Below are positions 5,519 to 27,538 of a DNA stretch of 64,000 nucleotides, one piece after another (the stretch's first letter is position 1; the number at the start of each line of letters is the position of its first letter). The position numbers and the translations under genes are program-made. Origin of the DNA: an uncultured Gammaproteobacteria bacterium (GTDB taxonomy: Bacteria; Pseudomonadota; Gammaproteobacteria; UBA6002); NCBI GenBank assembly GCA_963705725.1, contig CAVPKM010000007.1:64001-128000 (forward strand), in the 5' to 3' direction. Under the pieces are notes generated by a model. The model was not told the DNA's origin. It saw only the letters and a program-made list of their open reading frames with translations, and ran no database searches.

Positions 5519-6853
5519 ATGGGGTTTATCATGAAATTAAGCATACGGGATTCAAAAAGAAAAATAATCATTCTAAATGTCGAGCCTAGGATGAGCGTTA
5601 TTGATTTAAGAATTAAGTTGTATGAACTAAATGACCAAATTGATGAAATCATTTTATACCCTGACGATACCGTTGAAAATGGCATCACACTTGAAAATAA
5701 TCAAACTTTAGAAAACTATGCGATCAATGAAAATAGCTTAATCAAATTAGCTCCTCTCCTTGAAATTCCCAGTGAATTTTTTTGTCCCGTTTCTCTGTGT
5801 ATTTTCTTAAAGCCAGTTAAACTGCCTTGTGGCGCCACCATAGAATGTGAAGTCATCGAAAAGCATATCAAGCTGGCAGGGACTTGCCCTTTTACTCGAA
5901 AACCACTCACTACAACAGAATTGATCAAAGACACTATTCTGGAAGATCGAGTTAACAAGTTATTTGAGCAACATAAAAATAGTGCTGCTATTGAAGTATT
6001 AAATATAAAAAGATATCAATTAGAGGCGCCTGCCTTAAGTTTTCAAAATGACAGTCCGAGAGGACCGAGTGAGCCAAGTACAGATGATCAATTAGCGATG
6101 CATGCAGATCAGCCACCATCGAATGAAAATCCTCTAACTCAGGCACTAAGCGTTGTCAGAATGATACTTTCACTTGAACCAAATTTATTTGAATACGTAC
6201 AACCAGAGAACACAATAGCAACAACTGAAAATCAATTAAATGCTTGGCAAGCAGGAGCGCTAGAAAAGTTGCAACATCGCGGCTTAACTGAAGAAATGCT
6301 ACGAGCCTATAATCATAATGATCACAAATTTGATAATCATCATGCCTTTGCATTGGAAACGCTAGTTGAAAGCCGAGAGTTTTCCATCCAAGAAGCACTA
6401 GCTGAAATTGAAGGCTTGTCAGGTCATCAAGCAGAGGGTATTCGAAGGGGTTTAACTCGCCCTGAAGTTATCGATATGAATATTTGGCAGATAGAAACGC
6501 TAGTAAGCCTTAAAAGCTATGGCCTGACAGCAGAAATGCTAAGAGCTCATTTTTATAATGTTCAAGAATTTCATGATGGTCATTGCTACGCCTTGAAAAA
6601 TCTAGTTCAAACTCGAGAGTTTTCCGTCCAAGAAGCACTAGATGAAATTGAAGGCTTATCACCCTATCAAGTAGGGCGTATTCGAAACGGTTCAACTCGT
6701 GCTGAAGCAATCAATACTGGCGAAGCAGCAGCTAACGGTGGCCGTCACATGGCTTTGTTACCTTTTTTTAGCACTCTCCGACCTCGTACTGTGGAACGAC
6801 AGACAGGAAGTAATTACTCAATTAACGATGGGGCATCAAATGCATTCAAATAA
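5519..6853 (+). CDS. Ubiquitin-like + U-box + 2x80-aa repeat protein; candidate E3-ligase effector
   Basis: N-terminus aligns by eye to ubiquitin; U-box IPSEFFCPVS...PVKLPCG...CPFTRKPL; repeats start at 6236 and 6476. Confidence 0.8.
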   Translation: MGFIMKLSIRDSKRKIIILNVEPRMSVIDLRIKLYELNDQIDEIILYPDDTVENGITLENNQTLENYAINENSLIKLAPLLEIPSEFFCPVSLCIFLKPVKLPCGATIECEVIEKHIKLAGTCPFTRKPLTTTELIKDTILEDRVNKLFEQHKNSAAIEVLNIKRYQLEAPALSFQNDSPRGPSEPSTDDQLAMHADQPPSNENPLTQALSVVRMILSLEPNLFEYVQPENTIATTENQLNAWQAGALEKLQHRGLTEEMLRAYNHNDHKFDNHHAFALETLVESREFSIQEALAEIEGLSGHQAEGIRRGLTRPEVIDMNIWQIETLVSLKSYGLTAEMLRAHFYNVQEFHDGHCYALKNLVQTREFSVQEALDEIEGLSPYQVGRIRNGSTRAEAINTGEAAANGGRHMALLPFFSTLRPRTVERQTGSNYSINDGASNAFK

Positions 6854-7450: not shown

Positions 7451-8392
7451 TTATGGGCCAGGGTGGCGCTCAGGAAATGTATTCATCACATCCTCTATAA
7501 TATCACTAATGGAGGGTTCTATCTCCTGTAAAGCATTTAATATTTGAGGGAGAAGCTGAGCGAGTTCTTCTGGAGAGGTTGTTAGGTAAAATATATCATC
7601 CTCATCTCCAGGAAATAAACCGATGCCAGGAAGATCGGCCGTTATTCCATGATTTTGAAGGGCTTCTTTAAATAGCCGATTGTGCGCTATTGCAGATCTG
7701 AAGGTGTCTCCTTCCATATAAGTAGCCGTGATCCATAAGGTACAGTTTTCGGGATTATTTTTTATTTGCATTTCACTTATATAACTTGGATTACTATTAT
7801 AATAAATTTTTTTTTCTCCTAAATAATGCCAAAGTTCCCAGGTACCCCAATTAATCCGCTGAAGACGAGAGGCTGGTTGCTGCGCTGGAGCCTCAAAAAA
7901 CTGAGGTGCTTGAGGTTGTTGCGCTTGAAACGCCTGCGCACCCACTGCTTGTTGCATAGCTAAAACATCGTCTGGTGTTGGCGCAGCAGGCTGATTGGTC
8001 TGGGTTGAGGTGGGGCTAGGAGCCTCATAAGCATATCTTTCTTTATTAACAGCTTGCATCAAATCCTTGTAATCAGGGCGGTCTTTATTTTCGTTCAAAA
8101 ATTTGTTAATTTCGTTTTCTATTTCGTTTTTCACTGCAACCGCTGTAGCGATATTATTCACTTGTATTAATGTCATCGGCTGTCGATTAAAGGGATTTCT
8201 TCCAGTAATTCTGACAGATTCTTGTACAAAATGCCGTTCAACAGGGTCGGAGGATCCTGCAATAATGATAGGATCGGTTAAGATTGCGCCAGTAAGTTCT
8301 GAAATATACCCAAGTCTACTCATGTGCTTTTTAAATTCTTCGAGCAGCTCGTCTTTATTTTTAATAGGGTTTTCTTCAAATTTATGCTCCAT
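7451..8392 (-). CDS. U-box-like effector protein
   Basis: ISELTGAILTDPIII...VERHFV...RNPFNRQPM resembles a U-box; Q/P-rich linker; unrecognised C-terminal domain. Confidence 0.65.
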   Translation of the reverse strand: MEHKFEENPIKNKDELLEEFKKHMSRLGYISELTGAILTDPIIIAGSSDPVERHFVQESVRITGRNPFNRQPMTLIQVNNIATAVAVKNEIENEINKFLNENKDRPDYKDLMQAVNKERYAYEAPSPTSTQTNQPAAPTPDDVLAMQQAVGAQAFQAQQPQAPQFFEAPAQQPASRLQRINWGTWELWHYLGEKKIYYNSNPSYISEMQIKNNPENCTLWITATYMEGDTFRSAIAHNRLFKEALQNHGITADLPGIGLFPGDEDDIFYLTTSPEELAQLLPQILNALQEIEPSISDIIEDVMNTFPERHPGP

Positions 8393-10804: not shown

Positions 10805-10922
10805 TTTCGGAGTATAGCAAGAAGTTTGGATAAAACTTTGTTATTCTATGCTGTTTATCAATTTAAAAACGTTTTGGTATACCTTTGTGGCTTATGCTAG
10901 AGCAAGAAGAGTAGGGGAAGCC

Positions 10923-11444
10923 ATGATATTAAAGACTGCAAGGATAGACACAGTTTTAGGCCCGATGATTGCTATATCCGATGATACATCACTTTACTTG
11001 CTAGAATTTGTTACCAGAAGAGGATTAGAGCGAGAGGTAGAGCGCTTAAGGCATCGAGGGTTTGCCATGGTTCCTGGAAATGCCTTGCCACTTACCTCCA
11101 TAGAAACTGAGTTAGCAGCCTATTTTGAAGGAAAGCTTACTCAATTTAAAACACCATGCCGGACATTTGGTAGCCCTTTTCAGCAATTAGTATGGCAAGT
11201 GCTATGCCAAATTCCTTATAGCGAAACGAGAAGTTATGCAGAGCAATCGATTTGTTTGGGAAAACCAAGCGCATACCGCGCTGTCGCCAATGCGAATGGA
11301 GCCAATCAATTAGCAATTATTATTCCTTGTCATCGCGTTATTGCAAGTGATGGCTCACTGGGTGGGTATGGCGCTGGGTTAGCGGTAAAGCAATGGTTGA
11401 TTGAACATGAAAAACGACATAAAAAAGTATTAAAAAGTGAGTAA
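10923..11444 (+). CDS. ogt: Methylated-DNA-protein-cysteine methyltransferase
   Basis: RAVANAN...IIIPCHRVI active site; GGGGA RBS favours ATG 10923. Confidence 0.9.
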   Translation: MILKTARIDTVLGPMIAISDDTSLYLLEFVTRRGLEREVERLRHRGFAMVPGNALPLTSIETELAAYFEGKLTQFKTPCRTFGSPFQQLVWQVLCQIPYSETRSYAEQSICLGKPSAYRAVANANGANQLAIIIPCHRVIASDGSLGGYGAGLAVKQWLIEHEKRHKKVLKSE

Positions 11445-11455
11445 AGGTAATAGGT

Positions 11456-12706
11456 TTATTGTCGAATCAATCGGAAATTCAAGCCAGGTAAATTGACTTT
11501 CTCTGTCGTTCGATAAGGATTAATATCTAAGCCACCGCGTCTTGTATAACGTCCATAAACCGTGAGTTTTTCTGGGCTGCAACGATTCATGATATCCATA
11601 AAAATGCGCTCAATGCATTGCTCATGAAATTCATTATGATTACGAAAAGAAACAAGATACTGAAGCAAACCTTCTCGATTGATTTGTTTTCCAGTATATG
11701 CAATTTGCACACTACCCCAGTCTGGTTGATTTGTGACTAAGCAATTAGACTTTAATAAGTCAGAATACAAAATTTCTTCTACCGTGTTATCTTTTACCGA
11801 GAGATAATTGGGTTCAACAAGATAGACGGAGCAAGTCACATCTAGGTCATCAATACACTCGCCTTTTGGCGCTGATTGAATTGTAGCAAGCGTTTTTTCT
11901 TTTAAAGATAGCAGTCTTACCTGAACCTCTCCATTTACACGGGAGCTCAAATCACGTTCGACAGTCAACCTAACTTCTTCGCTGTTGGTAAACTGTGTGT
12001 TATTGAACGAATTAAAATAAAGTTTCAATGATTTTGACTCAATTAAATTGTCTGTTGCACAATCTAAATTAATGTTAGCAATCGCAACAATGGGTTTGCC
12101 TTTTTTATTGAGCCATGACACTTCATAATGATTCCAACAATCAAAACCATAAAAAGGAAGATTTTGGGGGTCAACGCCAATTTCTTTCCGTTTGGACTCC
12201 CTTGGAATTGCAAATAACCGTTCTGGATTATAATGCAAATCATAGCTGGATGACTGACCTAATTCAGATTGTCTAAGACCAGCTTGATATCGTTTTTCTA
12301 ATGTTTCATTCATACGCTGACTCTCCAAAATATTGATAATTTGTAATGAACTATACCAGTTCACAAGTACTCCTGCCTTAATCTGATTGGCAATATAGAT
12401 CGTAAGCCTTGCAGCCTCATGGATACAATGTGCTTTCTCCTTCAAAGCTTCCGCCTGAAGGTGCATAGAAGGCAACACCTCAAACTCAGGCCGTTCTAAA
12501 ATTTTTTTAATGGAATCTAATGAAAACCCTAGGAATTTTAAAGTGGCCACTTGTTGTAATCGGATTACATCCTCATCTGAGTACAAGCGATAACCTGCAT
12601 CAGTTCGAAAAGAGGGTTTTAACAAACCAATCTCATCGTAGTATTGCAACGAACGAATACTTAATGCCGTCATTTGACTGATATCTTTAATTTTATGGTA
12701 TTTCAT
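11456..12706 (-). CDS. queF: MerR-family HTH fused in frame to NADPH-dependent 7-cyano-7-deazaguanine reductase QueF
   Basis: N-terminus IRSLQYYDEIGLLKPSFRTDAGYRLYS (MerR). C-terminus ESKSLKLYFNSF, KSNCLVTNQPDWG, HNEFHEQC, YTRRGGLDINPYR (bimodular QueF). AGGAGT RBS supports start 12706. Confidence 0.92.
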   Translation of the reverse strand: MKYHKIKDISQMTALSIRSLQYYDEIGLLKPSFRTDAGYRLYSDEDVIRLQQVATLKFLGFSLDSIKKILERPEFEVLPSMHLQAEALKEKAHCIHEAARLTIYIANQIKAGVLVNWYSSLQIINILESQRMNETLEKRYQAGLRQSELGQSSSYDLHYNPERLFAIPRESKRKEIGVDPQNLPFYGFDCWNHYEVSWLNKKGKPIVAIANINLDCATDNLIESKSLKLYFNSFNNTQFTNSEEVRLTVERDLSSRVNGEVQVRLLSLKEKTLATIQSAPKGECIDDLDVTCSVYLVEPNYLSVKDNTVEEILYSDLLKSNCLVTNQPDWGSVQIAYTGKQINREGLLQYLVSFRNHNEFHEQCIERIFMDIMNRCSPEKLTVYGRYTRRGGLDINPYRTTEKVNLPGLNFRLIRQ

Positions 12707-12723
12707 TTTGACTCCTGAATTGG

Positions 12724-12754
12724 AGTTTATGCTATCACGCAAGGTGAAGGTCAA
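12724..12754 (-). promoter_or_regulatory. MerR-type promoter/operator
   Basis: TTGACC-19 bp-TAAACT with the dyad TCAC-CTTGC-GTGA in the spacer. Confidence 0.85.
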
Positions 12755-12841
12755 GAAAAATTATGAGGAAAAAGCCAGGTCAGTGTTTTTCACTGGGTAG
12801 TGTTAGGTAAATAATTTATGGTACAGTCGTTACGAGAAAGC

Positions 12842-13350
12842 AAAATAAGCTAACCTTAATTTTTCACATTGCTTTTTTTAAAAAATCTGCCACTATAGGA
12901 CACACGAGCGGGAAATTCCCGCCCGTGCGGAACCACTAAGGTGTTAGCGCGCCTAAGGGGTTCTAGCCACAAATTAACCTAACAACACGAGGTTAACTCA
13001 TGACTAACACTAGAATATCACCTATTTGCGCAAACGCGCAAAGTCCTTTTTCTTATTCCTCCCATTTTTTGCCAAACACAAAAGCAAATTCTACCCGTAA
13101 ACCCTCGGTTAGCCGTGAGCATTTGTGGCCGGCGACAGTTTGCTTAGTTTGGCAAGAGGGGTGGATGTTCTCAAGTAACAGGACAATATTCTAAGCAGAG
13201 GGGGATTGATGGCGGGTTGGCTTACTTCCCGCCTTCAATTTTTGAACACAAACCATTGTGCTCAACCTCTCTGCTGTGTTCAGACCTGTAGATAGGTTTT
13301 GCACTGCATTAAGGAAAATCTATGCAGTCGCCTTCAATTCGAAGCGAAAT
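12842..13350 (+). ncRNA. Structured ~500-nt leader element, copy 1 (orphan; ends after the first codons MQSPSI)
   Basis: Colinear with 19445-19947; conserved promoter-like start, several hairpins with compensatory changes, embedded 64-codon ORF 13000-13194. Confidence 0.55.
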
Positions 13351-14174
13351 TTCCAATCTTGAGGAAGTGCTATAGATGAAGAGGAAATCATTCAGTTATT
13401 CAAGAATCAATCAACAATTGATCCCTATACCAATAAAGTTGTAAAAGCGAAATCTGAATGTGAAGGTCGTCCCATAACACTGTTTGGTTTTCCTAACAGA
13501 GAGCGTGCGGCAAGAATTGAACTTAAATGGCACAAAAAAGTCATCCATAAGTTTTTTAGAGTGGGTGAGCCCTTAGCAGAAGGAAAACAATCAACACCAT
13601 TTTTAATATGGTTAACAACTGTATTGAACAAAAGCATCAAAACCCCATTCCTATCCAAGGCTACTCTAGGCGCAGCTTTATTATTGCGAGTCTAAAATTC
13701 TTACGCATTATGGCGATATGCCAGAATTAATTTTCATGTTGGGGATGACTAAAATTAAACTACTCGAGTAAATTCCGTGACGCAAAGGCAGAAGGGGATT
13801 TAAAATGAGGGCTCCCAATTATGGACATTGCATATGGTGAGGATGTATTAATAGGCTTTCGAACTTTATCATGCCTAAAAGGGATAGAAATCCAGATAAC
13901 CCGCAAGTGCGCTATAAAAAATTTCTTGAGATTTTTAAAGAACGATTAGCTACGATGGAGCCTTTTAGCCATTTGGATTTGAACAAATATGGAAATATCC
14001 TGATTGGTGTAGAGCCGGAGGCAAATGAATCTGATGAAAAAACACAAAACAACCTTCATCTGTTAAGGAGCATTATAATCAATCAGGTTTTTCTAACCTG
14101 ATAAGATTTGAATTTGTGAGCCATTATATTTCCTTCTAACTAGATAGTTGTGAATAGTGAAAAACATGAACGAA

Positions 14175-14637
14175 TTTTTTGCTACTCTCCTGAAATTTGT
14201 CGCGCGATTTATACTACGAATGCAGTTGAATCCGTGAATATGAGTCTTCGGAAGGTCATTAAAAGTAAGCGCGTTTTTCCTTCGGATGATGCCGCTTTGA
14301 AGCAGCTATATTTAGCGTTTAAAAATATTTCAAAAAAATGGACAATGCCAATACGAAATTGGGGTGATGCCATGAATCGTTTTATGATTCTGTTCGAAGG
14401 CAGGCTAAAAGGGGCGATTTAGTTTAAGAACTGATTTAAAATTTTGTGCCTTCGATCGCCTGTGGATATATGCACAAACTGACTCGTTGCACTCGTCAGT
14501 ATTGCGCACATACCCACAGGCACAATAATTTTATTTGTTTATTTAAAAAATTTTTGTTATTTTAATTTCGCTATCTGGAATTCGGTAGCAAAAAATCTGC
14601 TGACTCAACCTGCTTACACAAAATTATTTACGCTACC
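14175..14637 (+). mobile_element. IS256 3' fragment including the right IR
   Basis: Near-identical to ~3550-4013. Confidence 0.92.
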
Positions 14638-22933: not shown

Positions 22934-25900
22934 ATGCAATACAAGCAGCAAGCGTATCCCTTTAGTTTAATTTCAAGTAAGGGATTAGGAAAAACCTACT
23001 CGTCCTTCGATAAAATTGGACCGCTTCTGCCGATGAAAGGATTTGGCGCGGCAGGATTAACATTTTATCCGAATGTGGCAATAGGGAACTTATTTTTTCA
23101 AGACCATATGCTAAAAATTGAAGAGCAGGGCGGGATCCTTGAGCTTGGGTTTATTTACAATAGTCAAGCAGCAAGCGTGGATCCGGTTTGGCAGTTTGCG
23201 CATCCTAAATTTTATTTGTTATCGCGTTATTCTCAGCAAGTAGTGCTTTCTGAAGCAGATGGCTATCGTACAATCTATACGTTAGATCTCAAAAGCGGTT
23301 TTTTTTATAGTGAGACAGGCTCAAGAAAGGGAATCGCTTGGCTTTATTATCAGGAAGCCAATCAGCAATGGGTGCATTATCGACCTTTTGATCAAGTGAC
23401 GGAATATTTTAATGCGGAAGGATTGCTAGTAAAGCGTGAAACGAAAGCCGGTAACATCACAATCTATTATTATGATGCGTATTTACGCTTAAAAGAAATC
23501 ATTGGTGCAAGTGGTAACCGGTATAAATTTCACTATCAAGAAAATACACTTTCTCTTTATTTAGTGACGCTTGATTCCTCCGAGCAATTGTTGCAATCCT
23601 ATTTGTTTGATCTTGAGGGAAGACTTACCTTAAGCCAAACGCCGGATGGGTATCAAACCCAGTATTTTTACAGTGAAGTGTCTGCTCGGCAATTATTGGC
23701 GGTGAAACAATCTGACCAAACGATGTTAGGTTTTGGTTATGATCATTCCAATCGATTAGTGGAATGTTGTTTAGGCGATGCCTCCACGTTTACTTTGCAG
23801 TATCCAAATGAAACACAGCCGGATTTTTTGTTCAGCGATCCTGTTGGTGGCACGACCTCACTCAAGCTAAATGACCAGGTAGCTATCATTGAAATTGCGC
23901 GATCTCAAGGTATCGGTGCTGATTTTAAGGAAAAATTGATTACCGCCTATCATTACAATGCGCTGACACAACTGACGCTTATCCTTCATCCTAACCAGGG
24001 CCAGGAAGGCTTAAGTTATACCGATCGCTTTGGGTTGGTGCGCCTGAACGAAGGGCCAAATGGGCAAATGGTCGAGCAGGTCTATGAAGAAGAAGCGATG
24101 GCTGTTCGTTTGGTTGCTGACATTCAGTATGAAACGGTTCATGGCAGAAAAAATACGCTTTTAGCGACTTATTATGTTTATGACACCGATTTTAATCATC
24201 AATATACTTTTTTACGATTTAAGATTAACCCCTTAGGCAACGTGACGGAATATCGTCCGGATCGATGTGGCAATATTGCATCTGAACGAACCTATTTGGG
24301 CGGGATTTTTGATCGAAATCAGCGAGATCCCCGCCAGGCGCCGACTTTATCAGAGATAAAAGCTTGGGTGAGCCTGCAAGATGCCGCTAAGGTGAATTTA
24401 GTTGCCTATGAATATAATCTGAGAGGGCAATGGCAACATTACTGTCAATACGCTGAGGTCGATCAAGCAGGAAAGGGGAAACTCGATGAAGCCATGGGTC
24501 AGATTTATACCTTTCGAACGCTGTATGGGGAACCTTTTTTTAAGCAGGTGAAACAAAATAATATTCAGGCAGCAGTGACCCGGCAGCGCTTTGATGCGCT
24601 AGAGCGCCTGCTGAGTAGGACCGATGCCCTTAATCAAACCACGACGGATGACTATTTTGATGCTAAAGGCCAGGTAAAAATCATTTATCCGAATGGGAAA
24701 ATTGAGATTCGGCAACAAGATGCGAGAGGAAATGGCGTTTCCCTGCAAGAGATCGTAGCGGAACAAGAGAGACTCACGCAGTATCGGCGAGATGCAAACG
24801 GGCGGGTGGTATTAACGACCAGGCCCGATGGGGAGTTTCTTTATACTTTTTTTGATCATCAAGATCGCCTCAAGTTTTGTGTCACAGCGCTTGGAATCGT
24901 CACCCAGCAGGTTTATGCGGTTAAAAACCGTTTTGTTTCGACCACCGTTTATGCCAAGTGCATTGATACTCGGCAATTATGGCCGAGTGATCCGCCACCA
25001 CCTGGCTCCCTGCCGCAAGTTGATCGCTTGATCGCCTTATTGCCGGGTATTGCGGATGAGAGTATTGATCAAACACATTATACCTTTTTTGATTTTTCTG
25101 ATCGCCCGATTTATGAGGTGGATGAGGAAGGGTATGTCACGCAATTTCAGTACAATGCGCGCAATCAAAAGCGGGTTGAGATTGCGTATGCCAACCCTTT
25201 AGAGGATGAGCAGTTAGCGGAGTTAAAAGCAGGAAAGACACTTGCTCTTCCCATTGATTTCAATCAAGACCGAGTAAAACGGGATTTCTATGATAATAGT
25301 GGCGCGCTAATTGGTGAGCAGAATAGCGCAGGTTATGTGACTGAGTATGTGTTAGATGGGGCAGGAAATACGAAAGAATGCATTCGATATCACACCCCGA
25401 TGCCGCTTGATTTAGCACTACGCGATTTTGATCAAGTGCGGCCAAATGCTGCTTTACTCGATGCGCATACCTATTATTTTCGCAATAGCAAAGGAGCGCT
25501 GGTCGGACAATTCGATCCCGCAGATAGATGGGGAGAATATTATTATACGGCGCATCACGCTTACCCCAATGGCTTAATCCAAAAAAGTATTCGATATAGC
25601 ACTAAGGTGAGTTTTCCTCTGCTTCTGCCCCCTCCAGCCAATCCCGAAGCCGATGAAATCACTCTCTATCGCTATGATCTATTAGGTAGGCTTTTAGAGA
25701 CCGTTTTTCCGAATCAGAAAAAAGACCGTCTTCAATATAATGTGTCGGGTAACGTGATTTCAGCTAAATCTCAGGATTTACACTTTCCTGACTTGATGGA
25801 TCCTGATCATCAGCGAGCCAGGCATGCGCATTACGATGCTTGGGGCCAAAAAGTTAAGGAAACGAATGAGTTTGATGGGGAAATCTTCCATCATTATGAC

Positions 25901-27538
25901 CCGATAACCGGGCTGAAAACCCATACCACGGATGCCCTAAATCGGACCACGTATTATTTTTATGATCTTGATCAACGGTGGGTGGCCTCAGTCAATCCGG
26001 TAGGGGCAGTAGTGAAATACGAGCGGGATGCGTTTGGGGAGCGAATTAAAACGATTCGTTATGCCACGCCTGCTAAGGGAATCCCTACAGGGGGTTACCT
26101 CACGCCAGAGATTGAGAAACACTTTATTGCGGATCCTGAAAAAGACCAAGTGGTGTTATTCAAACGCAATCGTTTGAGCCAAGTTGTAGAGCAAATCGAT
26201 GCGAAAGGCAACATGAGCACGTTTAAGCATAATGGCTTTAAGCAAGTAGTGGAAAAAAATTTACCGGTAGCAGGTCCCCATCCGACGTTGAGGTTATCCC
26301 ACGAATTTGAAGTGCGTGGATTAGCGATTAACACGCGGATTGAAGCACTGGATACCCCGGTTGAGCACATTGAGCGGGCTTATGCGAATTTTTATGGCAA
26401 AGAGACTTATAAAAAAGATGCGCGTGGCGGGGTTTATCGTACGTTTTATGGTTGTCGCGGTTTAGTGAGTCAAAAAATTCAAGAAAGCGGCGCTGGCGAG
26501 GCGAGTCATTTTTTCACTTATAATGCGTTTGAAGCGTTGGCTACTGAAACCGATGCGTTGAATCAGACTACCACCTATCACTACAATCATCTGGCCCGTC
26601 AACATACTCTGCATTTCCCGGTTCATGGTGTCACGCAAACCCTTATCCACAATATTTTTGATGAAAAAATTCAGGAAACGGACAGTTTGGGCAATCGCCA
26701 ACGCTTCGAGCATGCAGCAAATGGTCAAGTGCAGATTGATGAAGATCCACTGGGACACATCACGCGTAGCGAGTTTGACCTGATGGGGCAGCTCGAGAGC
26801 AAGATTGATGCTAAGGGAGTGGAAACAAGGTTTAAATACAATGAAGCGGGGGATCTATTATTCCAAATTGAAGATGCGGCGGGCTTAGGGCTTCAAACCC
26901 ACTATCAACGCGATGTGTTTGGCAATGCGCTGCAAATCACGAATCCCCGTCAAGTCGTCACGCAAAATACCTATGACCAAACAAACTGCTTAACTTCAAG
27001 CGTGCTGGATGCGATTGATTCCGGTTTAAATTTAACGATTCATCCCACTTACAATGCAATGGGAAAGGAAGAGGGCAAGCAGCAAGGCGATAAGGTTAAC
27101 CCTTTGCAGTATGAAGAAAAATATCCTCTCGATGGCCGTGGTCGACAGATCGGTAAAACCCTCGATCCAACTGGCTTAGCGCTCGCTGCTCACCAGCACT
27201 TGAATGCAGCAGGAGACGTTATTGCTGAAGTGGATTTCAATGGCAATGTGACGCGCAAATTTTATGATGATTTCGGGCAGCTTCGTTTTGTGGTGGACCC
27301 AGAAGGTGGGGTGACTGAGACAAATTATGATCTTGTGAATCGAATCCATTATACGCGTCTTTATGAAAAAAGCATTAATCCGGATCAACTGACCGATCAA
27401 ACCGATCTTCACACCTTGTTAGGGTTAGTCGAGGTAGATTCGCAAGATAGCATCCTGTTTTATTTTTATGATGCAGATGGGTTAGCGCGGTTTGAAGTCA
27501 ACGGGTTAGGAGTAGTGGCGGAAGGTGCTACGACCTAG
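22934..27538 (+). CDS. RHS/YD-repeat toxin, N-terminal part (frameshifted from the next ORF)
   Basis: NVAIGNL...YNSQ RHS-type N-terminus and dozens of YD repeats; the frame continues as RCYDLARRRIKTIHYATP after a 1-nt slip at ~27523. Confidence 0.9.
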   Translation: MQYKQQAYPFSLISSKGLGKTYSSFDKIGPLLPMKGFGAAGLTFYPNVAIGNLFFQDHMLKIEEQGGILELGFIYNSQAASVDPVWQFAHPKFYLLSRYSQQVVLSEADGYRTIYTLDLKSGFFYSETGSRKGIAWLYYQEANQQWVHYRPFDQVTEYFNAEGLLVKRETKAGNITIYYYDAYLRLKEIIGASGNRYKFHYQENTLSLYLVTLDSSEQLLQSYLFDLEGRLTLSQTPDGYQTQYFYSEVSARQLLAVKQSDQTMLGFGYDHSNRLVECCLGDASTFTLQYPNETQPDFLFSDPVGGTTSLKLNDQVAIIEIARSQGIGADFKEKLITAYHYNALTQLTLILHPNQGQEGLSYTDRFGLVRLNEGPNGQMVEQVYEEEAMAVRLVADIQYETVHGRKNTLLATYYVYDTDFNHQYTFLRFKINPLGNVTEYRPDRCGNIASERTYLGGIFDRNQRDPRQAPTLSEIKAWVSLQDAAKVNLVAYEYNLRGQWQHYCQYAEVDQAGKGKLDEAMGQIYTFRTLYGEPFFKQVKQNNIQAAVTRQRFDALERLLSRTDALNQTTTDDYFDAKGQVKIIYPNGKIEIRQQDARGNGVSLQEIVAEQERLTQYRRDANGRVVLTTRPDGEFLYTFFDHQDRLKFCVTALGIVTQQVYAVKNRFVSTTVYAKCIDTRQLWPSDPPPPGSLPQVDRLIALLPGIADESIDQTHYTFFDFSDRPIYEVDEEGYVTQFQYNARNQKRVEIAYANPLEDEQLAELKAGKTLALPIDFNQDRVKRDFYDNSGALIGEQNSAGYVTEYVLDGAGNTKECIRYHTPMPLDLALRDFDQVRPNAALLDAHTYYFRNSKGALVGQFDPADRWGEYYYTAHHAYPNGLIQKSIRYSTKVSFPLLLPPPANPEADEITLYRYDLLGRLLETVFPNQKKDRLQYNVSGNVISAKSQDLHFPDLMDPDHQRARHAHYDAWGQKVKETNEFDGEIFHHYDPITGLKTHTTDALNRTTYYFYDLDQRWVASVNPVGAVVKYERDAFGERIKTIRYATPAKGIPTGGYLTPEIEKHFIADPEKDQVVLFKRNRLSQVVEQIDAKGNMSTFKHNGFKQVVEKNLPVAGPHPTLRLSHEFEVRGLAINTRIEALDTPVEHIERAYANFYGKETYKKDARGGVYRTFYGCRGLVSQKIQESGAGEASHFFTYNAFEALATETDALNQTTTYHYNHLARQHTLHFPVHGVTQTLIHNIFDEKIQETDSLGNRQRFEHAANGQVQIDEDPLGHITRSEFDLMGQLESKIDAKGVETRFKYNEAGDLLFQIEDAAGLGLQTHYQRDVFGNALQITNPRQVVTQNTYDQTNCLTSSVLDAIDSGLNLTIHPTYNAMGKEEGKQQGDKVNPLQYEEKYPLDGRGRQIGKTLDPTGLALAAHQHLNAAGDVIAEVDFNGNVTRKFYDDFGQLRFVVDPEGGVTETNYDLVNRIHYTRLYEKSINPDQLTDQTDLHTLLGLVEVDSQDSILFYFYDADGLARFEVNGLGVVAEGATT

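Follow-up and report, generated by a model that had tools for sequence, protein, structure and literature searches.

A MerR-QueF fusion gene behind its own MerR-type promoter: a probable autoregulated queF cassette of Legionella origin

Why should an enzyme of queuosine-precursor synthesis carry a MerR-type DNA-binding module, and does the resulting protein govern its own gene? The question is raised by a single gene in a 64,000-nucleotide stretch of DNA (the window) from an uncultured gammaproteobacterium. The gene lies at positions 11456-12706 of the minus strand and encodes a 416-residue protein made of a MerR helix-turn-helix (HTH) with coiled coil, a helical linker and a complete bimodular QueF. 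Pfam places MerR_1 at residues 5-71, QueF_N at 155-265 and QueF at 328-403. The original prediction had described one open reading frame, 11456..12754, joining MerR to a full QueF. The frame is present as noted and the fusion is real; the TTG at 12754 with which the listed frame opens is not a start codon but belongs to the -35 box, of which it makes up the first three bases. The architecture, a fused gene with a MerR-type promoter and operator, is established here (Table 1). The reading that we favor, with a probability of roughly 0.65, is that the locus constitutes a self-contained, autoregulated queF cassette of Legionella origin, in which the QueF part sets the switch and from which two products are made.

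Table 1. Coordinates of features in and around the fused gene (positions of the window; residues of the 416-residue protein).
Feature	Position	Strand	Basis or remark
MerR winged helix-turn-helix, residues 1-72	12491-12706	-	Pfam MerR_1 6.5e-16
Long dimerisation helix, residues 77-110, predicted antiparallel coiled coil	12377-12478	-	AF2 helix 77-110
Linker: two helices 117-127 and 130-145; hinge 143-153 reaching into QueF part	12275-12376	-	AF2
Complete bimodular (type II) QueF, residues 145-416	11459-12274	-	TIGR03138 and V. cholerae QueF alignment
Catalytic Cys322 codon (KSNC)	11741-11743	-	aligns with position mutated to Ala in 3rj4
MerR-type promoter	12724-12754	-	-35 TTGACC 12749-12754, 19-bp spacer, -10 TAAACT 12724-12729
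Operator dyad TCACC-TTG-CGTGA	12735-12747	-	slightly degenerate against family consensus palindrome TCACGT-N-ACGTGA
Shine-Dalgarno AGGAG of long form	12712-12716	-	read from sequence; 5 nt before ATG
Start codon (ATG) of 416-residue long form	12704-12706	-	shared by all 44 aligned orthologues
Internal GGAG from Leu127 (TTG) and Glu128 (GAG) codons	12323-12326	-	9 nt before Met132 codon
Met132 codon, candidate internal start of free 285-residue QueF	12311-12313	-	conserved in at least 90% of 44 sequences
Stop codon of fused gene	11456-11458	-	
Whole transferable cassette (promoter, operator, fused gene), Legionella type	11455-12770	-	blastn bounds
Repeat element, upstream flank of cassette	12842-13340	.	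two other genomic copies, 84-86% identity
Truncated IS end	14175-14637	.	at least 7 copies elsewhere in genome, about 97.7% identity
Mutator-family transposase fragment ORF in IS end	14150-14422		Pfam Transposase_mut positions 323-377 of 379

The QueF half matches the NCBIfam profile for bimodular QueF (TIGR03138) with 401.9 bits against a cut-off of 293.45, residues 145-416 covering profile positions 4-275 of 275, and V. cholerae QueF (PDB 3bp1) aligns with it end to end (E 1e-82). All three catalytic motifs that the prediction had seen as kept (KSNC, QPDW and FHE) are found in this alignment. No row lacks Cys322, whether fused (17 of 17) or unfused (67 of 67), and C322, D329 (QPDW), H357, H361 and E362 (HNEFHE), C364 (HEQC) and R390 are all kept in the 17 fused ones. 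The N-terminal T-fold of QueF carries the motif E-S-K-S-x-K-L-Y. Here it reads ESKSLKLYF at residues 223-231, with E223, S224, K225, S226, K228, L229 and Y230 invariant among 44 sequences. Judged by its sequence, the module should be a catalytically complete and fully competent preQ0 reductase. Comparison of the 17 fused with the 67 unfused rows revealed no residue of the QueF domain specific to the fused form; three cysteines considered as a fused-specific redox or metal site (C190, C216 and C292) were rejected because they are common in unfused QueFs too. A search for another queF in the host genome (G000), as the prediction had advised, found none: the fused gene is the sole copy found, alongside queC, tgt and queA. 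It is also the sole QueF in three of the four Legionella genomes checked (G005, G007 and G009).

The N-terminal part scores above the cut-offs of two MerR HTH profiles (PF13411, 58.6 bits against 21.6; PF00376, 44.2 bits against 28.2). Its closest solved structures are MtaN 1jbg (E 2.4e-21), 3qao, TipAN 2vz4 and SkgA 7cla, and by these matches it is a MerR HTH and coiled coil of the Mta/TipA class. In the AF2 model the HTH helices span residues 6-13 and 17-26 and the wing 40-42; farther on, N116-W117 in the linker is invariant across 44 orthologues. The HTH is under the same constraint as QueF_N, the mean majority fraction being 0.75 in each. Rigid allosteric coupling of the two modules is not evident, as the hinge between them (residues 143-153) is of low confidence in the AF2 monomer. 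Homodimer prediction gave an ipSAE of 0.77 (0.00 for the best of three controls), with a partner pLDDT of 83 and runs agreeing in at least 95% of contacts, a pass that may reflect memory of structures because like dimers have been solved for both modules. Of proteins solved as one-chain pairs, 20 of 30 reach the ipSAE mark; of those solved as single chains, 1 of 23 does. Predicted contacts include 88-95, 92-92 and 85-102 in the coiled coil; the interface also takes in a QueF-QueF surface and linker residues 115-131.

The promoter originally read as TTGACC-19 bp-TAAACT with a TCAC-N5-GTGA dyad was confirmed. A degenerate form of the pattern has one match in the window and none in 100 shuffles; no sigma-70-like site with a 16-18-nt spacer was found upstream of the gene on the same strand. 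A site of 26.5 to 51 bits precedes the gene in every one of the 37 fused loci examined; all 67 unfused QueF loci lack it. Its spacer is exactly 19 bp in all 35 fused loci for which the site is printed, and the ATG follows the 31-bp site at a distance of 16-29 nt in the 15 loci where this was measured. Columns inside the site have a mean identity of 0.87, as opposed to 0.47 in the 31 nt upstream. Promoter and dyad are a phylogenetic footprint of the fused gene. Since the site is specific to the fused gene and the fusion is conserved, autoregulation, as originally proposed, is the natural reading; comparative sequence data lend good support to the view that the fused gene controls its own production.

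A matrix (PWM) scan of the 1.58-Mb host genome returned the gene's own site, at 41.8 bits, as the sole one above 12 bits. Each of three Legionella genomes has the exact palindrome a single time, in every case at the fused gene. One-mismatch matches number 3-6 against 1-5 for a reversed-pattern control. A wider regulon was rejected, with only the own site in the host genome and one-mismatch matches no commoner than those of the control in five Legionella genomes. The operator in the window is weaker than the consensus, 2 of its 13 positions being changed. Some cross-regulation by another MerR protein could occur, because a TipA-like paralogue in L. drancourtii has a look-alike promoter of 24.7 bits whose operator matches 12 of 13 bases.

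The same message may give a second product. The internal GGAG preceding Met132 is found in 13 of 15 fused genes, and one more has GAGG. Gene-wide, TTG and CTG together account for 33% of Leu codons and GAG for 33% of Glu codons, and just 2 of 28 other Leu-Glu pairs use xTG-GAG. These figures indicate that the internal GGAG is held by synonymous-codon choice. In unfused QueFs of Legionellaceae, an ATG stands at the corresponding position (window residues 127-135) in all 10 cases, 9 of them with an SD-like motif, and exactly the 285-residue form is annotated in some NCBI records (P0090, P0103 and others). Probably, the conserved internal ribosome-binding site and Met132 also provide a free 285-residue QueF from the fused mRNA.

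The fusion is conserved: the domain-architecture check suggested with the prediction found both MerR and QueF domains in 109 of the 120 homologues listed. Of 198 Legionellaceae genomes scored, at least 49 have a full-length fused match, so that the fused gene is the usual form of queF in no less than a quarter of the Legionellaceae species genomes sampled. Among the best 150 representatives out of 1.84 billion, the MerR-QueF architecture is confined to one cluster and one fragment of the same, a pattern pointing to one single family. Longer representatives considered as other DNA-binding-QueF architectures (P0161, P0194, P0164, P0173, P0140 and P0189) have no extra Pfam domain and were rejected. 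Within Legionellaceae, loss or decay of the MerR part has been frequent: the tree requires a minimum of 3 changes on starred branches, and 7 by parsimony. Relics of it with stop codons exist as well; the regulation must therefore be dispensable. L. steigerwaltii has a second copy, which adjoins a D12-class DNA methyltransferase-like gene.

In the window, blastn similarity to Legionella loci begins and ends at the borders of the cassette, and there is no flank synteny. Nucleotide identity is 79-80% to L. drancourtii over 11496-12764 and just 79-84% to any known Legionella copy; the QueF domain nests inside an all-Legionellaceae clade (support 96, starred). Close genes on both sides match genomes of the host's own genus (DJ-1, 70% nucleotide identity to G001; a 494-residue protein, 65% to G004). 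The host assembly, a draft of 20 contigs with 92% completeness and 1.56% contamination, has the cassette in a 157-kb contig (C7). Together, these comparisons indicate that the host is not Legionella and that a cassette of exactly promoter and gene was acquired as a unit by horizontal transfer. The prediction had placed the gene in accessory DNA away from other que genes. The DNA does look acquired, with queC on contig C17 and tgt-queA on C9; the gene is not an extra copy, being the sole QueF found. A sub-stretch of the upstream repeat (about 12955-13063) has many copies in the same-genus genome G004. In G001 and G004 the native queF locus has flanks that were sought in the host genome and not found, a result uninformative on synteny. 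As a sign of transfer, G+C content was rejected as not discriminating (0.371 in the cassette, 0.391 in the window); GC3 is slightly higher in the cassette gene (0.32) than in neighboring native-like genes (0.23-0.28).

How might such a cassette operate? The 416-residue product would act as a homodimer, its Mta/TipA-class module binding the palindromic operator in the 19-bp spacer of its own promoter. As with other MerR regulators, one state of the bound dimer would keep the over-spaced promoter silent and another would realign it. Most likely the QueF module would determine which state prevails, with the long form serving as sensor and the 285-residue short form as bulk enzyme. QueF forms a covalent thioimide with preQ0 and has a protective disulfide that rearranges the substrate loops as it forms (PMC5372742). 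Candidate signals would be occupancy by preQ0 (the covalent Cys thioimide), NADPH, and oxidation of the Cys322/Cys364 pair; through its QueF domain the protein may thus sense preQ0, NADPH or the redox state. Sensing of preQ1 or of a deazapurine toxin, which the prediction had also put forward, is conjectural as well. Within this scheme we infer that the fused protein binds DNA, in which direction it regulates, which signal it reads and that the internal start is used. More tentatively still, the preQ0-Cys322 thioimide adduct could itself be the inducing signal, a possible but doubtful proposal by which the promoter would come on when preQ0 exceeds the reducing capacity, and free QueF made from Met132 would clear the preQ0.

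A simpler account would have the MerR part bind its own promoter and damp or set expression with QueF as a passenger, no ligand state being passed on, and the fusion would be the outcome of read-through from a regulator gene into the gene that it controlled. The low-confidence hinge at 143-153, the lack of a fused-specific residue in QueF and the ease with which the MerR part is lost all suit it, and the ancestral QueF start and Shine-Dalgarno sequence still lie inside the fusion, as a simple gene fusion predicts. It does not readily explain why the linker helices (117-145, with the invariant N116-W117) are conserved and fall in the predicted dimer interface. Moreover, MerR proteins at promoters with 19-bp spacers normally require an effector for activation (compare PMC9909328), and without one the sole queF would stand behind a poor promoter. 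Overall, we regard the passenger account as unlikely. Control of the promoter by a different MerR paralogue, for instance a TipA-like one, would reduce the fused MerR to a vestige or a mere dimerisation scaffold. Such paralogues exist: besides the L. drancourtii gene with its 24.7-bit look-alike and operator matching at 12 of 13 bases, stand-alone MerR paralogues in G001 and G004 have look-alikes of 15-25 bits, and the MerR part is frequently decayed. We nonetheless find this quite improbable, given that the HTH equals the enzyme's N-domain in conservation, that operator and fusion always go together (37/37 as against 0/67 in unfused loci) and that both parts are kept in the new host, where the sole other MerR-like match shows 36% identity and a 10.9-bit site.

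Could the cassette be an assembly or binning chimera within its contig and not truly belong to the host? Its junctions do lie in repeats and IS debris of an incomplete 20-contig draft (92% complete, 1.56% contamination). Against this, it is embedded in 157 kb whose flanking genes match same-genus genomes (DJ-1, 70% to G001; the 494-residue protein, 65% to G004), shares only 79-84% identity with whichever Legionella copy is known, has a G+C of 0.37 like its surroundings and supplies the sole queF of a genome that has queC, tgt and queA, all of which makes a chimera very improbable. 7-Deazaguanines occur in the DNA of some bacteria and phages. The MerR part might accordingly tether QueF to DNA, where it would convert preQ0 to preQ1 on DNA 7-deazaguanines and play no role in transcription, and the neighbor of the second L. 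steigerwaltii copy would fit such an activity. A single operator per genome, set exactly between the -35 and -10 of the gene's own promoter, together with a host genome in which tRNA pathway genes are present and the fused gene is the sole QueF found, renders a DNA-directed enzyme scarcely credible. An autoregulated cassette switched by its QueF part is thus the reading that we retain.

In TipA, thiostrepton is bound covalently via a cysteine. QueF is alike in that the ligand of the C-terminal module, preQ0, becomes covalent on Cys (PMC5372742). The TipA class is presented in PMC7762955 as a minimal autoregulated MerR system, in which the apo effector domain blocks DNA binding. TipAL/TipAS, SkgA, Mta and AlbA share with the fused protein an N-terminal MerR HTH/coiled coil and a C-terminal effector module, and the class likewise has its own promoter with 19-bp spacer and central dyad. 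The parallel with TipAL/TipAS extends to a likely shorter in-frame product, the C-terminal module by itself. The fused protein differs in carrying a complete T-fold housekeeping enzyme instead of the helical TipAS drug-binding domain, and its system serves tRNA-modification metabolism, with one target promoter found, in place of drug resistance. No TipAS domain is matched by Pfam in the fused protein, the C-terminal part being QueF_N and QueF; it is therefore not a TipA-class member, though it appears to work like one. With type II QueF (V. cholerae 3bp1, 3rj4 and 3s19; E. coli YqcD) it shares end-to-end alignment, catalytic and binding motifs, a TIGR03138 score above cut-off and the predicted QueF-QueF interface; it differs in 131-144 extra N-terminal residues, which form the predicted DNA-binding dimerisation module.

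PutA, BirA and NadR are trigger enzymes with a DNA-binding domain. Like the fused protein they combine in one polypeptide a pathway enzyme and a transcription factor for own or pathway genes, so that flux through the enzyme becomes readable as transcription. They differ in being RHH, winged-helix or other HTH repressors, whereas here a MerR-type activator/repressor would act on an over-spaced promoter. The preQ1 riboswitches (RF00522 and relatives), by which control of queuosine-precursor genes has so far mainly been known, have the same task as that proposed here, control by a pathway intermediate, and differ in being RNA-based and acting in cis on the mRNA. RF00522 has no match in the host genome or in four Legionella genomes, and no riboswitch reaches gathering scores in the window or at the queC, tgt and queA loci.

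A dedicated protein regulator of queuosine-precursor genes would be new. Should the thioimide indeed be the signal, queuosine-precursor synthesis would have in the fused protein its first protein-based regulator, in the role that preQ1 riboswitches play elsewhere, and the cassette would be a TipAL/TipAS-style circuit built round a housekeeping enzyme and small enough, at 1.3 kb, to pass as a unit from one genus to another. MerR proteins serve as a model for ligand-driven promoter remodelling; one with a well-studied enzyme as its effector domain, whose substrate intermediate is covalent, would offer a clean system for following how catalytic state leads to DNA distortion. In the literature searched we found no paper on a MerR-QueF fusion or on a MerR-enzyme example with QueF; the portion seen of PMC9241155 names QueF and a MerR-like regulator in unrelated sentences only. 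Nor did a search for a map of Legionella transcription starts turn up a usable one. Losses of the MerR part, retention of the internal start and transfer of promoter with gene depict a regulator-enzyme fusion that was gained, moved and shed while the enzyme was retained. The fusion is present in many Legionella species, including L. pneumophila, where it is annotated just as QueF; well-studied genomes would therefore contain a regulator that has gone unrecognised.

One open reading frame joins a MerR DNA-binding module to a full QueF, in agreement with the original prediction; the start did not stand. The TTG at the far end of the frame was rejected as start codon since it forms the first half of the -35 box, and translation is assigned to an ATG downstream. 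The 416-residue product, P0001, contains the Pfam domains MerR HTH (residues 5-71), QueF_N (155-265) and QueF (328-403), and scores 401.9 bits with the NCBIfam bimodular QueF model (cut-off 293.45). The alignment of its last 273 residues with V. cholerae QueF (3bp1, E 1e-82) is end to end, and C322 is the catalytic Cys, with Ala at the aligned position in the mutant entry 3rj4; QPDW, HNEFHEQC and RRGG motifs are also present, and all these residues are kept in 17/17 fused rows and in essentially all unfused rows compared. The MerR part belongs to the Mta/TipA class, its closest structures being MtaN (1jbg, 2.4e-21), 3qao, TipAN and SkgA. In the AF2 model (pLDDT 82.6), HTH and wing are followed by a 34-residue helix (77-110), two more helices within 117-145, a low-confidence hinge (143-153) and QueF.

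Coordinates of features in the window
Feature	Position	Strand	Remark
U-box domain protein	5519-6853	+	
U-box domain protein	7451-8392	-	
O6-methylguanine-DNA methyltransferase gene	10848-11444	+	ends 12 nt from cassette
Cassette (fused gene plus promoter)	11455-12770	-	limits of DNA similarity to Legionella loci
Open reading frame	11456-12754	-	
Start codon (ATG)	12704-12706	-	AGGAG 5 nt before
Promoter TTGACC - 19 bp - TAAACT	12724-12754	-	read upstream of fused gene
Rejected start codon (TTG)	12754	-	
Repeat	12842-13340		upstream flank of cassette; genome comparison
Truncated IS	14175-14637		beyond repeat; at least 7 other copies in genome
1534-aa open reading frame	22934-27538	+	

The predicted promoter, with a dyad (TCACC-TTG-CGTGA) inside its 19-bp spacer, is present and recurs at other fused genes. 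Its degenerate pattern has a single match in the window and none in 100 shuffles, and no normally spaced sigma-70-like site was found upstream of the fused gene on the minus strand. In the window and 14 fused loci of named Legionella records, the 31-bp site lies 16-29 nt upstream of the ATG, with a mean column identity of 0.87 against 0.47 in the preceding 31 nt; the consensus spacer of fused loci contains a perfect palindrome, TCACGT-N-ACGTGA. The site also precedes the fused genes of loci L045 and L106 and those of 20/20 further genomes forming an independent test set (13 with sequences absent from the training set), bringing the total to 37/37 fused loci. In contrast, none of 67 unfused QueF loci has a site above 10 bits in the matrix scan. 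In the 1.58-Mb genome of the window (G000), the sole site above 12 bits is the fused gene's own, and the exact palindrome occurs once in each of three Legionella genomes, always at the fused gene. Matches with one mismatch (3-6 per Legionella genome, versus 1-5 for a reversed control) show no excess. This distribution assigns the operator to the fusion, which it apparently serves to the exclusion of anything else; the 31-bp promoter is a phylogenetic footprint of the fused gene.

The history of the cassette differs from that of its host, whose family and order are wholly made up of five species genomes, G000 included. Tgt and QueA of G000 are 76-80% and 60-65% identical to those of same-genus genomes, versus 44-45% and 54% to those of Legionella; among named relatives, the closest Tgt sequences come from gammaproteobacterial MAGs and Colwellia. 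The QueF of P0001 is only 53-56% identical to unfused QueFs of two same-genus genomes, G001 and G004, while P0001 reaches 81-84% with fused proteins of L. adelaidensis and a metagenome contig (nucleotide identity to L. drancourtii, 79-80%). In the QueF-domain tree (84 rows, quick IQ-TREE) the window falls in a supported nine-row clade (96*) whose other members are all Legionellaceae; G001 and G004 form a pair in another part of the tree (98*). Similarity to Legionella loci at the DNA level covers just gene and promoter, with unshared flanks. The near neighbours, a DJ-1 gene on one side and a 494-aa hydrolase-like gene on the other, match same-genus genomes. It is improbable that the cassette is a chimeric assembly. 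The truncated IS on the upstream side is of Mutator/IS256 type (copies about 97.7% identical), with seven other places in G000 (contigs C7, C9, C10 twice, C11, C13 twice); a 13-base word that recurs some 600 bp away from every copy probably belongs to this element. The cassette had been placed in accessory DNA away from other que genes: it does look acquired, with queC, tgt and queA at other places, but it holds the sole QueF, a search of G000 having revealed no second one. Together, these features argue that the cassette moved, and was acquired by the host, as a working unit now supplying its only QueF. The neighbouring O6-methylguanine-DNA methyltransferase gene has 74% nucleotide identity to a gene at an unlinked place in the Legionella genome G005 and no DNA match in same-genus genomes; it may be a second, separate acquisition.

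Both domains are found together in 109/120 of the best homologues listed, from Legionella, Fluoribacter and related MAGs, whose source records call them just QueF, preQ1 synthase or GTP cyclohydrolase. A search of 1.84 billion representatives at 50% identity gave, in its best 150, P0064 as the sole full-length fusion cluster and P0233 as a fragment of it; the rest are QueF alone, and the longer ones checked showed no additional domain. In a sample of the family to which a named Legionella genome belongs, QueF is present in 185 of 198 scored genomes, and at least 49 contain a match that begins no later than residue 24 and extends to residue 416 (two internal TGA in one of them). Ahead of QueF, many unfused copies retain remnants of residues 65-135, in some cases interrupted by stop codons, and fused and unfused forms interleave in the tree (at least three changes forced by starred branches, seven by parsimony). 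Evidently, the MerR part was shed repeatedly. The fusion is the sole QueF in the Legionella genomes G005, G007 and G009; L. steigerwaltii (G008) has two fused copies. The second intact copy (L106, contig C38), divergent to a D12-class DNA methyltransferase-like ORF, has a QueF domain identical to that of an unrelated MAG (L019), which suggests that the cassette also moves between Legionella species.

In L. anisa (L044) and F. gormanii (L045), the same pair of frame-shifted matches changes frame near residue 181, and the QueF domains are identical across the two species. The first piece corresponds to P0233, a 228-aa MerR-only cluster. A partial match of equal score (182-416) occurs in G138, G169, G175, G185, G193, G199 and G201, all of which also have a full-length fused match (with two internal stops in G138). 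The frame-shifted form is a pseudogene that is spreading, or else a split form. In L. bozemanae (L013, 2921-3223 and 3284-3931, both minus strand), a 100-aa MerR-only paralogue is encoded two genes upstream of the fusion; it is 45% identical to the fusion's HTH and has a look-alike promoter of its own (23 bits). The intervening ORF is presumably Nudix-like, as named by motif.

The fused gene likely yields a second product. At least 90% of 44 fused proteins share Met132, and L127 and E128 show little or no variation among them. For Leu127-Glu128, 12 of the 13 genes with Leu-Glu there (14 analysed) use TTG/CTG followed by GAG, which puts a GGAG 9 nt ahead of the Met132 ATG in 13/15 fused genes (GAGG in one more). 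Gene-wide, TTG+CTG and GAG are minority codons (33% each), and the other Leu-Glu pairs use the combination in just 2/28 cases; this comparison is no formal test, the rows being related, though about one base in three differs between the genes. Translation from Met132 would produce 285 aa, which is the typical length of a QueF and matches the annotation in some NCBI records. In unfused orthologues from Legionellaceae, the corresponding position holds an ATG (10/10), with an SD-like motif (9/10), so the fusion retains the ancestral QueF start, which explains the harmless loss of the MerR part. The retained start suggests a pair of products similar to TipAL/TipAS.

MerR regulators act on over-spaced promoters, a state change in the effector domain flipping repression to activation (compare PMC9909328); in the TipA class, as outlined in PMC7762955, the apo effector domain blocks DNA binding until ligand releases it, and the system regulates itself. 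The QueF catalytic Cys binds preQ0 covalently and can also pair with a second Cys in a protective disulfide, a change accompanied by large rearrangements of loops (PMC5372742); C322 and C364 are the P0001 equivalents. A P0001 homodimer is predicted (ipSAE 0.77 versus 0.00 for the best of three controls; at least 95% of contacts agree between runs; partner pLDDT 83), at a mark reached by 20/30 solved one-chain pairs versus 1/23 single chains, although the pass may reflect memory, both dimer kinds being already solved for relatives. The predicted two-fold interface comprises an antiparallel coiled coil, helices 117-130 and a QueF-QueF surface. The most economical model, in which we infer binding, direction of control and signal, is that the long form would relay its active-site state to the promoter of its own gene and the short form would perform most of the catalysis. 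The signalling state would most likely be substrate-loaded, with NADPH-bound or oxidised as alternatives. Against active-site reporting stand the flexible hinge between the two modules, the lack of fused-specific residues in QueF, the dispensability of the MerR part in evolution and a TipA-like paralogue with an almost identical operator.

A literature search found no paper on a MerR-QueF fusion, and no preQ1-I riboswitch was detected in G000 or four Legionella genomes. Trigger enzymes and the TipA class already illustrate the principle of fusing an enzyme to its own regulator; new here are QueF as the effector, the pathway involved and the portability.

The window encodes two U-box domain proteins, and next to queC (locus L108, 196-1188 and 2123-3595) lie genes for ankyrin-repeat and TPR-methyltransferase proteins. 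Such eukaryote-like domains are typical of bacteria living inside amoebae or other hosts, a lifestyle in which this organism would encounter Legionella. A same-genus genome, G002 (97% complete), has tgt and queA and no QueF match; it may depend on salvaged preQ1 or queuine. Finally, the Tgt of G000 is 44-45% identical to Legionella Tgt (G005, G007) versus 72% to Colwellia Tgt, and Legionella Tgt therefore looks unusually divergent, or replaced.
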